Source of the DNA: an uncultured Alphaproteobacteria bacterium
GTDB lineage: Bacteria > Pseudomonadota > Alphaproteobacteria > RF32 > CAG-239
DNA: 64,000 nucleotides
Direction of reading: 5' to 3'
Assembly (NCBI GenBank): GCA_910587405.1
Contig: CAJUKS010000004.1
Span: 5,977-69,976, forward strand
The notes below the pieces were generated by a model. It searched no databases and was not told where the DNA came from. It saw nothing but the letters and a program-made list of their open reading frames with translations. The position numbers and the translations under genes were made by a program. Positions 35,737 to 41,289 of this stretch are shown piece after piece (position 1 is the first letter of the stretch; each line of letters starts with the position of its first letter).

Positions 35737-36177
35737 TTATTCGCGATGATACGGATGATGATTGATGATCGTCTGTATCCGATAAATCTGCTCGGCCAGC
35801 ACCGCCCGCATCAACATATGCGGCAACGTCAGCTTACCGAAAGACAACAACAAATCCGCCCGTTCGCGCGTCGACGGCAAATGCCCGTCGGCACCGCCGA
35901 TCAAAAAGCAAATTTCCGAACAACCGTTCAACATCCACTTTTCAATCCGGGCTGCCAGTTCGGTCGACTTCATATTGTCGCCCCGCTCGTCAAGAACAAT
36001 TACTTTTGCGCCCGCGGGAACAGACGCCGTCAAAAAACGTGCTTCTTCTTCCTGGGTGGCATTATCCTGCTCTTTTATCACCACATCCCATCCCGAGCGT
36101 TTGACATATTCGTCAATCAACTGCTTTTCCGGCGAGTTTCGTTTGCATTTTCCGATTGCTATGATTGTAGCTTTCAT
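35737..36177 (-). CDS. rlmH: 23S rRNA (pseudouridine1915-N3)-methyltransferase RlmH
   Basis: C-terminal HPYHRE and overall collinearity with E. coli RlmH. Confidence 0.85.
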   Translation of the reverse strand: MKATIIAIGKCKRNSPEKQLIDEYVKRSGWDVVIKEQDNATQEEEARFLTASVPAGAKVIVLDERGDNMKSTELAARIEKWMLNGCSEICFLIGGADGHLPSTRERADLLLSFGKLTLPHMLMRAVLAEQIYRIQTIINHHPYHRE

Positions 36178-36268
36178 CTTCTTCTCCGTTGTATCCGACA
36201 AATATCGTAATAACATTTTCAAACGCCGAAGCCAACCCCAAATATAAGGTTTTACCGCCCTTTCCCGC

Positions 36269-36297
36269 TTGACATTTTTGTCTAAAAATTTTATATT
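36269..36297 (+). promoter_or_regulatory. sigma70-type promoter TTGACA-17-TATATT
   Basis: consensus elements ~40 nt upstream of 36336 ORF. Confidence 0.5.
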
Positions 36298-36335
36298 GTA
36301 TTTAGAAAAAATATTATTCTTAAAATTAAAAACTT

Positions 36336-36902
36336 ATGAATCTTTTTAAAAAACTTTTTCGCCGCCGGGGTTCCTGCGATTCCAAAGTTGCGGACAACGA
36401 CATCCTGTTTTCTCCCGAAGATTCCCGATTTCAGTCCCTCATCAGTCTGCCGGCACCGATCGTGCATCCCGGCGACATGATGGAAGAACTCGGCATCGCC
36501 GTCTGTATGCACCGGAAAAGTTCCGTCGCCTACAACTCCGAGGATATCAAGGCCTATGAGGTGCTTTCGCCCGATGACAACAAGCATCTCTGTTTTTTCC
36601 TCGGCATGCTGAAAGACGGCTGCTATTACGGAAACATCCCCGGTACCGCCTGCATCTGCACCTGCTGCCAAAGCGACTATGTTTTCAAAGAAAGCACCGG
36701 CTTCCGGATACCGGTGATGATTCGCAAAGACAGGGTTTATATGCTGGAGTGCTGTTACGACTGCAAAGCTTTTCGGGTTGAAGCCGACTGTCTTTACAAA
36801 GTTAACCGCCGCGACGGCAGCCGCGAAACCATGCTTCGGTTTGGAGGCAACAACCGCCGTCTCGACAAAGCATTTCCCGTCATCAAAGACATTCTGCGCT
36901 GA
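36336..36902 (+). CDS. cysteine-rich hypothetical protein (13 Cys; CICTCC, ECCYDC clusters)
   Basis: ORF with consensus promoter and strong terminator (36925-36957). Confidence 0.55.
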   Translation: MNLFKKLFRRRGSCDSKVADNDILFSPEDSRFQSLISLPAPIVHPGDMMEELGIAVCMHRKSSVAYNSEDIKAYEVLSPDDNKHLCFFLGMLKDGCYYGNIPGTACICTCCQSDYVFKESTGFRIPVMIRKDRVYMLECCYDCKAFRVEADCLYKVNRRDGSRETMLRFGGNNRRLDKAFPVIKDILR

Positions 36903-37034
36903 CACCGGCGTACAAGTCACCAAAGGACTCCTGTTCACGACAGGAGTCCTTTTTTTATTCCGGCTCACCTGACAAAGACCGGTTTTTAGAATAGTTGCTT
37001 GACTTAACCTGAGGCAAACTTTAAAGTAAATATT

Positions 37035-37505
37035 ATGAAAAAATCAACCTTATACATCATTCACGGCTTTATAGGTGCCGGTAAAACGACCTTTTCAAAA
37101 AAATTGGCGTCAGAAACCGGCGCGGTTCATCTAAATCCGGATGAATGGTGCGTTAAACTGTTTACCCCCAAAAACTATGAAGCAAACTGGGAAAAATGTT
37201 TCGCCGATACGATGGATATTTTATGGAATAAAACAAAAGAGTATTTAGGCAAGGGCACGGACGTCATTCTCGATATGGGTTTTTGGGATCGGAAATCCAG
37301 GGACGCGGCGAAAAACCTCGCCATCGAATGCAATTCATATTTTAAACACTATTACATATATGTACCGGATAACATTGCCAAACAACGCATCTCGCTACGC
37401 ACCGGCAAAATTGCTGAAAATAATGTAAAGAATTTCGACGAAATCAAAAAGCGGTTTTCGGCTCCCGAAAGCGATGAAGATGCGATAATCATAAACAACT
37501 GTTAG
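37035..37505 (+). CDS. small P-loop NTPase / predicted kinase (AAA_33-like)
   Basis: Walker A GFIGAGKTTF at residues 11-20, 156 aa, DxxGxW-like segment. Confidence 0.6.
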   Translation: MKKSTLYIIHGFIGAGKTTFSKKLASETGAVHLNPDEWCVKLFTPKNYEANWEKCFADTMDILWNKTKEYLGKGTDVILDMGFWDRKSRDAAKNLAIECNSYFKHYYIYVPDNIAKQRISLRTGKIAENNVKNFDEIKKRFSAPESDEDAIIINNC

Positions 37506-37544
37506 ATTAGAAACAGGCCTCTCCCTGTTCGTCAGACCTTTGTC

Positions 37545-37575
37545 AAAAAACCGGCGTTTTAGACGCCGGTTTTTC
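37545..37575. terminator. bidirectional intrinsic terminator between kinase gene and rsfS
   Basis: aaccggcgt/acgccggtt hairpin flanked by A6 and T5. Confidence 0.65.
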
Positions 37576-37585
37576 AAACAAAAGC

Positions 37586-37954
37586 TTATTCCTTGCGCAG
37601 GTTGGCCACCGAAGTCCACATTTTTTCCAAATTATAAAAATCGCGTACTTCGGGACGGAAAATATGCACAATAACATCATAAGCATCGATCAAAACCCAA
37701 TCGCCGCGGGTTTCGCCCTCACTGACCGACTTATACCCCGCCGCCTTCAGATTCTCCTGAACCCGCTGAGCCAGAGAAATGACATGACGGTCCGAAGTTC
37801 CCGACGCCACGACCATTTCGTTGGCAATCGAAGTCTTGCCGCGCAAATCAATCACCACCATATCTTCGGCCTTACCATCTTCCAAACTGGCGGTAACGAT
37901 ATCCAACACCTGATTTTCTTCTTGTTTTTCTTTTTTATTTAACAAAATTCTCAC
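37586..37954 (-). CDS. rsfS: ribosomal silencing factor RsfS (Iojap)
   Basis: collinear with RsfS/DUF143. Confidence 0.8.
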   Translation of the reverse strand: MRILLNKKEKQEENQVLDIVTASLEDGKAEDMVVIDLRGKTSIANEMVVASGTSDRHVISLAQRVQENLKAAGYKSVSEGETRGDWVLIDAYDVIVHIFRPEVRDFYNLEKMWTSVANLRKE

Positions 37955-37962
37955 TCCTTATT

Positions 37963-39030
<1,068 letters not shown>

Positions 39031-39768: not shown

Positions 39769-40245
39769 TTATTTATTAAGAATCCGATACAGCTGAGGCT
39801 TCATGAATTTGCCCTGCCAGATTCCCCGTTTTTCGCTACGGGCTTCTGCCTCGGCGGCAGAATAATCGGAGTACTTGCTTTTATAGACCACCGCCCAGCC
39901 GGCCTTCACCATTTCCTCGTTAAGATTGAGCTTTTTCCCCGACGGCATGGTCACATAACAGGTGCAAAGACTGCGTTTATAGCGGTCCAGATCATGCTCG
40001 ACGCATTTTACCCGTCCCTTGTCAACCAAATTTTGCAAATATTCTTTGGCGTCAAGGCCGCAGGCATATTTCTTTTTGTTTTCCAAACGGCAGTCCTGAT
40101 AATATTCAGGCGAGTCGATTCCTTCCAGACGGATCCGCACGTTTTTCATTTCCAGACTGTCGCCGTCCACCACCGTGACGTTTACCGCCGCGGCCGCAGC
40201 GCCCGCATACAGGCATCCGGCCAACAAATAACTAAGCAGTTTCAT
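39769..40245 (-). CDS. secreted thermonuclease (SNase-like)
   Basis: signal peptide; VRIRLEGIDSPE and downstream Arg/Glu SNase motifs. Confidence 0.75.
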   Translation of the reverse strand: MKLLSYLLAGCLYAGAAAAAVNVTVVDGDSLEMKNVRIRLEGIDSPEYYQDCRLENKKKYACGLDAKEYLQNLVDKGRVKCVEHDLDRYKRSLCTCYVTMPSGKKLNLNEEMVKAGWAVVYKSKYSDYSAAEAEARSEKRGIWQGKFMKPQLYRILNK

Positions 40246-40413: not shown

Positions 40414-41289
40414 GTGTCAAAGAAAAAAGCTCTCTGTCTGTTGATCATTTCGTTGTTTACCGTCAGCAGCTGCCGTTTTTGGGACCGCAGCATGCAAGAA
40501 GTCATGAACGACCCGTTGGACAAAGCCAACGCCCCGGCCGAAGATTACGGCAAACGATATGTCGAACTGGCGCCCCTCTCAATGCCCCGTTCGGTCATTG
40601 TCTGCCGCAGCAAACAATGCGCACCGATCAAGCTGTCAATGTCAAAAGAATACATCTACAACAGCCTGGTCCAGATGTTTCAGAACAACAACCACCAGAA
40701 AGCCTTGGTTTGCGCCGCCGACGTCGGCAGTCACAACTGCTTTGAAAATTACGTCTCCCTGCCGATCACCGTCGGCATTACACCGGCCTACATGTATATA
40801 GATTCGGTTAAGATCAGCGACATTACCGTCAACAAAGGCAGCCGCTCCATCAACATGATGCTTAACTACAACGTTACTTATAACGGACAGACGCCCGACT
40901 GTGCTCCCGACAAAACTTTGATGTTCGTCAAAAATGCCGACAACATCGTCATGGAAGACAAAGGTTATCGCTGCAAAATGACCACCATCGGCACCACCAC
41001 CATAAAGACCCTGTTCCTGGTTGACTTTATCGACCTTGATTACGGCTTCATCGGCGGTTACTATTCCATCGGTCTTTCCGGTCCCGCTTACGGCGGCGGT
41101 TCGGGCTACATGATGATCCGCATGGCCAAAACCGGTTACCCGCTGCTGCCGATGCCCAAAGCGCCGGCTCAGAAGCCCAAGTTAACCCCGGGACAAGAAC
41201 AGGCCGAGGCTTACATCGACGGCAAGGACACGGCACCGGCCGCCCGTACCGACGGCGTGGAAGTATTTCCGATCAACTACAAGAAATAA
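40414..41289 (+). CDS. lipoprotein, unknown function (291 aa)
   Basis: lipobox TVSSC; Cys-containing mature region. Confidence 0.55.
   Translation: MSKKKALCLLIISLFTVSSCRFWDRSMQEVMNDPLDKANAPAEDYGKRYVELAPLSMPRSVIVCRSKQCAPIKLSMSKEYIYNSLVQMFQNNNHQKALVCAADVGSHNCFENYVSLPITVGITPAYMYIDSVKISDITVNKGSRSINMMLNYNVTYNGQTPDCAPDKTLMFVKNADNIVMEDKGYRCKMTTIGTTTIKTLFLVDFIDLDYGFIGGYYSIGLSGPAYGGGSGYMMIRMAKTGYPLLPMPKAPAQKPKLTPGQEQAEAYIDGKDTAPAARTDGVEVFPINYKK

Follow-up and report, generated by a model that had tools for sequence, protein, structure and literature searches.

The stretch of DNA analysed here, 64,000 nucleotides of contig CAJUKS010000004.1 from an uncultured Alphaproteobacteria bacterium (hereafter the window), contains two accessory genes between rlmH and rsfS. 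The first, open reading frame 1 (ORF1; 36336-36902, plus strand), codes for an orphan protein of 188 amino acids, and the second (37035-37505, plus strand) for a stand-alone P-loop kinase of 156 amino acids with the Pfam domain AAA_33. The gene order is rlmH(-), ORF1(+), a terminator, the kinase gene(+), a bidirectional terminator and rsfS(-), followed by obg, rpmA and rplU. An insertion splitting the rsfS-rlmH pair had been proposed in a prediction made from the letters of the window (the original prediction). This gene order is confirmed, and the insertion varies by lineage. Neither inserted gene is a housekeeping gene. Both are real accessory genes; that they arrived separately is part of the explanation favoured below.

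The slot is bordered on the left by rlmH, the gene of 23S rRNA pseudouridine-1915 N3-methyltransferase (35737-36177, minus strand; Pfam SPOUT_MTase, E = 4e-42; NCBIfam RlmH models). Since the SPOUT_MTase match starts only at residue 16 of a longer open reading frame, the start of rlmH was assigned to the ATG at 36177; in gene calls of related contigs the protein has 146 residues. The right border is rsfS, coding for ribosome silencing factor (37586-37954, minus strand; Pfam RsfS, E = 1.5e-30; TIGR00090, E = 8.5e-33), directly after which lies obg (37963-39018, minus strand). No RNA families and no tRNAs were detected near the slot.

ORF1 is preceded by a divergent control region of 158 bp (36178-36335), which contains the ORF1 promoter on the plus strand and weaker promoter-like sites for rlmH on the minus strand. 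The ORF1 promoter, TTGACA-17-TATATT (36269-36297, plus strand), is present where it had been predicted and agrees with the consensus at 11 of 12 positions. Its -35 hexamer is invariant across four related contigs. The whole region contains 6 promoter-like sites compared with 3.7 +/- 2.0 in shuffled sequences, and the ORF1 promoter is the only individually strong one among them. The A/T-rich ORF1 leader (36298-36335) is without obvious Shine-Dalgarno sequence. Leader and divergent promoter region are almost invariant among the window and comparison loci L001, L004, L093 and L120, where ORF1 coding DNA is only about 80% identical. This conservation may be due to the rlmH promoter on the opposite strand, or the leader may be regulatory. 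As for the kinase gene, the TTGACT site of the original prediction exists but starts at 36999, not at 36992, and the complete promoter-like site (36999-37027, plus strand; TTGACT-17-TAAAGT) agrees with the consensus at only 9 of 12 positions. Its -35 hexamer is kept in L004.

Strong terminators had been predicted after both genes, and both hairpins are indeed found, with z-scores below -5 relative to shuffled sequence. The ORF1 intrinsic terminator (36922-36952, plus strand) consists of a 14-bp stem followed by a T-run (-21.5 kcal/mol, z = -6.2). The second intrinsic terminator (37546-37574), common to the kinase gene on the plus strand and rsfS on the minus strand, can form from either strand (-19.9 and -22.2 kcal/mol, z about -5.4) and has U-runs both ways, in line with its predicted bidirectionality. 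Locus L001 has an analogous hairpin 3' of its own ORF1. Because the bidirectional terminator is also present after rsfS in L001, which has no kinase gene, it is older than the kinase insertion. Positions 36974-36992 (plus strand), just 5' of the kinase cassette, imperfectly repeat the left arm and loop of the terminator of rsfS (compare 37543-37561). This copy may be a scar of kinase insertion; it is degraded in L004, short repeats of this kind can occur by chance, and the copy is not significant. Beyond it, no direct repeats or target duplications were found around the kinase cassette.

Comparative synteny of rlmH-rsfS, a check proposed with the original prediction, was carried out with RsfS as probe and covered 80 alphaproteobacterial species loci. 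In free-living Rhodospirillales, Hyphomicrobiales and their relatives (about 50 loci), rsfS and rlmH are adjacent, as had been stated, with a gap of 14-250 bp and a single exception (L075). Across an uncultured clade from gut and rumen (about 20 loci, RsfS 62-81% identical) the two genes are 7 to 2539 bp apart, and in a few of these loci rlmH is inverted or absent. Slot contents vary across this clade. Different species carry serpins (L014, 1924-3276; L017, 4762-6042; Pfam E = 1e-56), Fic proteins (L019, 7452-8537; L021, 8725-9810; Pfam E = 4e-14), prepilin-like proteins (L021 and L024; recognised by eye from the N-terminus, with no Pfam match) and unrelated small ORFs. No integrase, tRNA or convincing repeat marking the slot was found, and a full-text literature search combining rlmH, rsfS and hotspot returned no paper. 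The metagenome-assembled genomes (MAGs) with serpin or Fic genes in the slot come from ruminant and human gut, and several bear implausible names ('[Ruminococcus] gnavus', 'Bacteroidaceae').

The two genes of the window had been described as a self-contained module reminiscent of toxin/antitoxin or nucleotide-modifying defence modules. This reading is not supported: a terminator and a promoter lie between them, and each gene occurs alone. Loci L001-3 and L120 closely resemble the window in RsfS (100% identity), Obg (98%), RlmH (99%) and flanking DNA (93-97%); their slot contains an ORF1 homologue, and the kinase is absent. ORF1 relatives also occupy the slot without kinase in L013, L096 (beside another small ORF) and L116. 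The two genes are found together only in the window (with L119), L093 and L004. More distant ORF1 relatives lie beside glycosyltransferase genes, or beside FGase and TrkA genes.

Kinase homologues with 58-71% identity occur in four other settings that share no common neighbour. One is a 203-kb IMG/VR viral contig (L005-7, L100), where the homologue is 71% identical and located among tiny ORFs and HNH/NUMOD genes. The others are a site next to rpoD that is flanked by genes for a GNAT acetyltransferase and for DNA-alkylation repair (L008-9), a prophage-like region near GpA terminase (L010-12), and the interval between MIF and der (L094-5). No conserved partner gene was found beside the kinase in the contexts examined. 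The viral contig, IMGVR_UViG_3300045988_181983 (L005/L100), comprises 202,747 bp with GC content of 0.34 and is of jumbo-phage size; the dozens of ORFs surrounding its kinase gene code for 40-200 residues and have no Pfam match, and its HNH/NUMOD genes are those of homing endonucleases.

Compared with L093, which is nearly identical, L004 lacks 1 bp of ORF1 (GAAAG to GAAG), and its kinase gene is intact; L004 is a single MAG (GCA_948588585.1), and an assembly error is possible. The frameshift beside an intact kinase is suggestive evidence against ORF1 as an antitoxin, whose loss would be lethal. A second frameshifted ORF1, in L121, was discarded, as this contig is a chimera with an Illumina adapter (CTTTCCCTACACGACGCTCTTCCGATCT) inside ORF1 (about 245-275). 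L119 was likewise discarded as evidence: midway through rlmH (about 300-700) an unrelated sequence takes over, and the contig is a chimera. The two products of the window need not interact.

ORF1 represents an orphan family. Searches of Pfam, NCBIfam, PHROGs and PADLOC with the protein gave no match, nor did a PDB sequence-profile search. The 46 family members gave no Pfam match and no consistent PADLOC match, and neither the phages of GenBank nor the plasmids of PLSDB yielded anything. Among 5.8 billion protein clusters, word-indexed search retrieved only 4 relatives of ORF1; profile search retrieved 7, while exhaustive search of 1.84 billion representatives with a hidden Markov model (HMM) yielded 54 family clusters (at 50% identity). 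A 1302-aa repeat protein among these 54 matches was judged to be a spurious Cys-repeat match. Family members are 115-215 aa long, typically about 180 aa. The small slot ORFs of L036 and L038 were considered as candidate remote relatives of ORF1; their HMM E-values were 1.8e-5 and 1.7e-3, obtained in small databases and accompanied by hhalign probability of only 6%. In the related species L096, two tandem small ORFs adjoin rlmH (3379-3885 and 4001-4570); one, of 168 aa, is without detectable relatives and the other is an ORF1-family member (P0126, 38% identity). This pair is followed by an ORF with signal-peptide-like N-terminus.

In the family alignment, an N-terminus that is short and basic (MNxFKKL...) is joined by a variable linker to a conserved domain with motifs HPxDLxE..A, DIxLY, G.YYGNIxG..I.SC, P126, L.C.Y and a C-terminal F...A. 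The protein of the window contains 12 cysteines, one fewer than originally counted, compared with a family median of 5. The clusters CICTCC and ECCYDC are both present as described, and they are restricted to the sub-clade of the window. Since the only family-conserved cysteines are C110 (34 of 46 sequences) and C139 (38 of 46), the clusters are taken as a quirk of this sub-clade and not as a metal site. ORF1 as a Cys-cluster metal-binding or redox protein was accordingly rejected, as three or four family-conserved Cys ligands would be required.

An AlphaFold model of ORF1, built from six sequences, has a mean predicted local distance difference test score (pLDDT) of 80.8, exceeding 88 for residues 40-188; residues 1-28 are disordered. 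The predicted structure is a compact alpha/beta domain composed of one helix, nine beta-strands and a C-terminal helix. No credible fold relative was retrieved by Foldseek from PDB (best E = 0.15, template modelling score (TM) below 0.3) or BFVD (best E = 0.01, TM 0.2). The isoelectric point (pI) of ORF1 is 8.4, with a family median of 8.1. Judged by a ratio of nonsynonymous to synonymous substitution rates (dN/dS) of 0.25, the 54 clusters and the confident model, ORF1 is a real gene under purifying selection. It changes rapidly: the protein is 70% identical where RsfS is 100%, Obg 98% and RlmH 99% identical, and its dS is 0.70 compared with 0.19-0.32 in the flanks. Our guess is that ORF1 may be a strain-variable protein of niche, interaction or immunity type rather than a ribosome factor.

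The second gene codes for a P-loop kinase of the AAA_33 type, as had been predicted. The full Pfam domain (PF13671) is matched above gathering score, with E = 6e-20 and 72.4 bits against a cut-off of 27 (residues 6-144 on profile positions 1-143 of 143). The additional description as zeta-toxin-like is not supported: the Zeta_toxin match (PF06414; 21.3 bits, E = 2e-4) is under the Pfam cut-off of 22.3 bits and covers only profile positions 16-145 of 199, and no zeta toxin is among the best 50 Foldseek matches. A link to known defence modules did not emerge either. In PADLOC-DB 2.0 the kinase matches only VakA, and only over the P-loop (residues 9-33, E = 4.9e-4), and ORF1 has no match.

The AlphaFold2 model of the kinase has pLDDT of 95. 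Foldseek search of PDB gave 255 matches at E <= 1e-3, of which the best 50 are all P-loop kinases. Best structural matches are mammalian PNKP, Clostridium thermocellum Pnk, a sugar kinase (4eun), O-phosphoseryl-tRNA(Sec) kinase (PSTK) and the Rhizopus and Lichtheimia kinases (9d8a/9drz), with gluconate, adenosine phosphosulfate (APS) and phosphofructokinase-2 (PFK-2) kinases close behind. In PDB sequence-profile search, PSTK is the best match (8e-11), followed by putative kinase 2rhm, Mucorales kinases, adenylate kinase, Pnkp1, the C. thermocellum Pnkp kinase domain and T4 Pnk. PSTK also ranks first and PNK-3'Pase third in NCBIfam, and PHROG matches include polynucleotide kinase. Overall, the window kinase is most like the kinases of polynucleotides and tRNA. 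One kinase homologue matches the chloramphenicol-phosphotransferase family of Pfam (PF07931). GenBank phages and PLSDB plasmids contain only distant kinase homologues (below 36% identity), annotated as 'ATP-binding protein'.

Alignment of 44 homologues reveals that G11, G16, K17, T19, D36, D80, W84, R89, R118, R122 and E148 are invariant. In the Walker A motif (11-GFIGAGKTT-19), T18 is nearly so. The motif D-x-G-F-W-x-R-x-x-R is peculiar to this family, and the median pI is 6.3. The predicted structure shows the fold of a P-loop phosphotransferase with its motifs conserved. By analogy to characterised relatives, K17 and T18 would hold the ATP phosphates and Mg2+, and R118 and R122, which the profile alignment sets on the R-x-x-x-R of PSTK, would form a lid over the phosphates. 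D36, located 19 residues past K17, may be the general base that activates the substrate hydroxyl, an equivalence judged by its position alone. W84 and R89 of the family motif would shape the acceptor pocket.

Taken together, we consider it likely that the rlmH-rsfS stretch is an accessory-gene hotspot holding two separately acquired and separately transcribed single-gene cassettes, of which the kinase is phage-related. ORF1 would be the older resident, present in the slot since before the closest species diverged and belonging to a family of lineage-restricted cytoplasmic proteins that evolve far faster than their neighbours. By parsimony, the kinase was added after ORF1. It would have been inserted 3' of the ORF1 terminator in one sub-lineage, bringing its own promoter and borrowing the pre-existing bidirectional rsfS terminator.

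The kinase gene is likened to a phage-derived 'moron' gene because it is AT-rich and its nearest relative out of the slot lies on the 203-kb phage contig. Its GC content is 0.406, and 0.47 at third codon positions (GC3), compared with 0.482 for the window and GC3 of 0.52-0.70 for neighbouring genes; it is AT-richer than the host locus in every context examined. In a neighbour-joining tree, constructed without support values, the window kinase and the phage copy are sisters. When the window is compared with L004, dS of the kinase gene is 0.50, against 0.17-0.22 in the flanks, with dN/dS of 0.10. Raised dS of both kinase and ORF1 suggests that slot alleles are older than the backbone, or have been exchanged more often.

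Several observations weigh against this explanation. All comparison genomes are MAGs or metagenome contigs, and two of the contigs (L119 and L121) are chimeric. The entry of cargo into the slot is accounted for by neither a mobility gene nor a clear target-site duplication. Phage origin of the kinase is argued from composition, a single phage homologue with 71% identity and a bootstrap-free tree, and transfer in the reverse direction is possible. The ORF1 family lies beside rsfS/rlmH in at least five diverged lineages, for which a functional link could be the explanation, and co-residence of ORF1 and kinase in three assemblies (the window with L119, L004 and L093) leaves room for secondary coupling. 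As to the nucleic-acid substrate considered next, the arginine three residues past the catalytic aspartate, R38 in T4 Pnk, is missing and replaced by C39, and gluconate, APS and PFK-2 kinases fit the kinase fold almost equally well.

By analogy with PNKP, PSTK and the stand-alone RNA kinases, the kinase could transfer phosphate to a nucleic acid or nucleotide, with its 5'-OH as acceptor, and we put this forward tentatively, as somewhat less than an even chance. A small molecule is nearly as likely as acceptor: the gene might serve metabolism or resistance by phosphorylating a sugar acid, a nucleoside or an antibiotic-like compound, which we hold to be possible though less likely than not. Foldseek places gluconate, sugar (4eun), APS and PFK-2 kinases within tenfold of the E-values of PNK and PSTK, and the chloramphenicol-phosphotransferase match of one homologue and the median pI of the family, which is not basic, point in the same direction. 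So does the residue following the putative general base. In T4 Pnk, the arginine three residues past the catalytic aspartate (D35/R38) binds the terminal nucleotide phosphate; in the window kinase, D36 is followed by E37-W38-C39, and position 39 varies within the family (C, M, V or L), so that this polynucleotide-binding arginine is missing. Sequence profiles speak for the nucleic-acid side, being led by PSTK (8e-11) and including Pnkp1, the C. thermocellum Pnkp kinase domain and RNA kinases, together with the NCBIfam ranks of PSTK and PNK-3'Pase and the polynucleotide kinase match in PHROG. Carriage by phages likewise fits nucleic-acid or nucleotide metabolism.

Other explanations bind the genes more closely to each other or to their surroundings. 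ORF1 and the kinase could form one module, either a zeta-like toxin with a Cys-rich neutraliser or a nucleotide-modifying anti-phage pair. The genes are adjacent, on the same strand and both accessory between core genes; the pair recurs in L004, L093 and L119, a weak Zeta_toxin match (E = 2e-4) exists, and kinase relatives reside in phages and prophage-like regions, which often carry genes for defence and counter-defence. On the contrary, a terminator of -21.5 kcal/mol and a separate promoter stand between the genes, each of which turns up on its own in many contexts. Besides scoring under the gathering cut-off, the Zeta_toxin match is limited to part of the profile, with zeta toxin absent from the best 50 Foldseek matches, and the PADLOC match is confined to the P-loop, with no consistent match in the ORF1 family. 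Moreover, the would-be antitoxin is bigger than the would-be toxin, and in L004 ORF1 is frameshifted next to an intact kinase with dN/dS of 0.10. A single module is therefore highly improbable in our estimation. It is also unlikely that ORF1 is a clade-specific accessory factor of ribosome hibernation or 23S rRNA modification (acting with RsfS, RlmH or Obg), the kinase being the sole passenger. Across the window, L001-3, L004, L093, L013, L096 and L116, lineages spanning RlmH identities down to about 76-82%, family genes converge on rsfS and/or diverge from rlmH; the control region common to rlmH and ORF1 is more conserved than ORF1, whose N-terminus is basic (pI 8.4, family median 8.1). Distant family members, however, adjoin glycosyltransferase or FGase/TrkA genes and not ribosome genes, and most species of the clade are without the family, their slot containing other cargo or nothing. 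A rate of change leaving 70% identity where RsfS retains 100% is unlike that of ribosome-associated factors, and ORF1 is possibly pseudogenised in L004. Finally, the ORF1 family might have a new fold, its members being strain-variable, fast-evolving determinants, for example immunity, exclusion or host-interaction factors, beside the ribosome-silencing locus of gut Alphaproteobacteria, the ORF1 of the sub-clade perhaps being coupled to the kinase, for example as its substrate or regulator. We regard this as a long shot; if true, the pair would be a new type of kinase-based module.

In the gut clade, obg ends 8 bp from rsfS (37954-37963). In free-living relatives (L041-L092) it lies about 3.3-6 kb upstream of rsfS. 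Genes commonly located between obg and rsfS in many bacteria are proB, proA and nadD; since only 8 bp part obg and rsfS in the gut clade, its cluster is without the genes usually found there. Further along the window, a conserved 291-aa protein with lipoprotein-like N-terminus (…LFTVSSC) is encoded at 40414-41289 (plus strand) and has no Pfam match in related contigs. It is adjoined by a gene for a secreted SNase-like nuclease (39769-40245, minus strand), and the two genes keep their synteny in L001-L004.

While the junction of rsfS and rlmH is fixed in most Alphaproteobacteria, in uncultured lineages of gut and rumen it probably became a drop-in site for niche genes (serpins, Fic proteins, pilin-like and orphan proteins), and it may serve as a landmark for mining strain-variable functions in poorly known organisms. 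At the same time, a plausible-looking toxin/antitoxin or defence candidate is removed as unsupported. Two uncharacterised families are defined by our analysis: a stand-alone kinase that is carried by phage and has relatives among the RNA and tRNA kinases, and an orphan family of about 180 aa with a confidently predicted structure and no known fold relative.

Among known enzymes, the window kinase resembles the Mucorales kinases (9d8a, 9drz), the C. thermocellum Pnkp domain, T4 Pnk and PNKP in being a single domain of about 160 aa with Walker A motif G-x-G-K-T, and it shares with polynucleotide and RNA kinases an invariant aspartate 19-20 residues past the P-loop lysine and an R-x-x-x-R lid. 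With 163-208 aa, the Mucorales proteins act as stand-alone kinases on RNA 5'-OH ends and combine a P-loop, a general-base aspartate (Asp36 in the Mucor circinelloides enzyme) and lid arginines (Arg99 and Arg103 in the Rhizopus enzyme) (PMC11571804). The window kinase follows a like plan, with D36 as putative base. Unlike these kinases, to which it is only 15-22% identical, the window kinase lacks an arginine three residues past the aspartate, has its own D-x-G-F-W-x-R-x-x-R motif and is not accompanied by a phosphatase or ligase partner nearby. PSTK is its best match both among PDB profiles (8e-11, over the full kinase domain) and in NCBIfam. The PSTK model itself (TIGR03574) is nevertheless matched with only 27.7 bits against a cut-off of 290.5, and the window kinase, with 156 instead of about 250 aa, is devoid of the C-terminal tRNA-binding domain. 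PSTK is an enzyme of those archaea and eukaryotes in which selenocysteine is made by this route. With zeta toxin (PF06414, a UDP-N-acetylglucosamine (UNAG) kinase) it has in common the P-loop superfamily, a weak Pfam match and the status of accessory gene. It differs from zeta/epsilon pairs in being about half the size of zeta and in having no co-transcribed small antitoxin or conserved partner.

As for the locus, the concept of core-gene-flanked integration hotspots that collect accessory and defence genes comes from the pangenomes of Escherichia coli and Pseudomonas. The slot differs from such hotspots in that its cargo is limited to a single gene or two (0.2-2.5 kb) and is not accompanied by an integrase, a tRNA or clear repeats. 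It shares with them the arrangement in which a fixed core pair, here rsfS and rlmH, brackets cargo that varies between species and strains.

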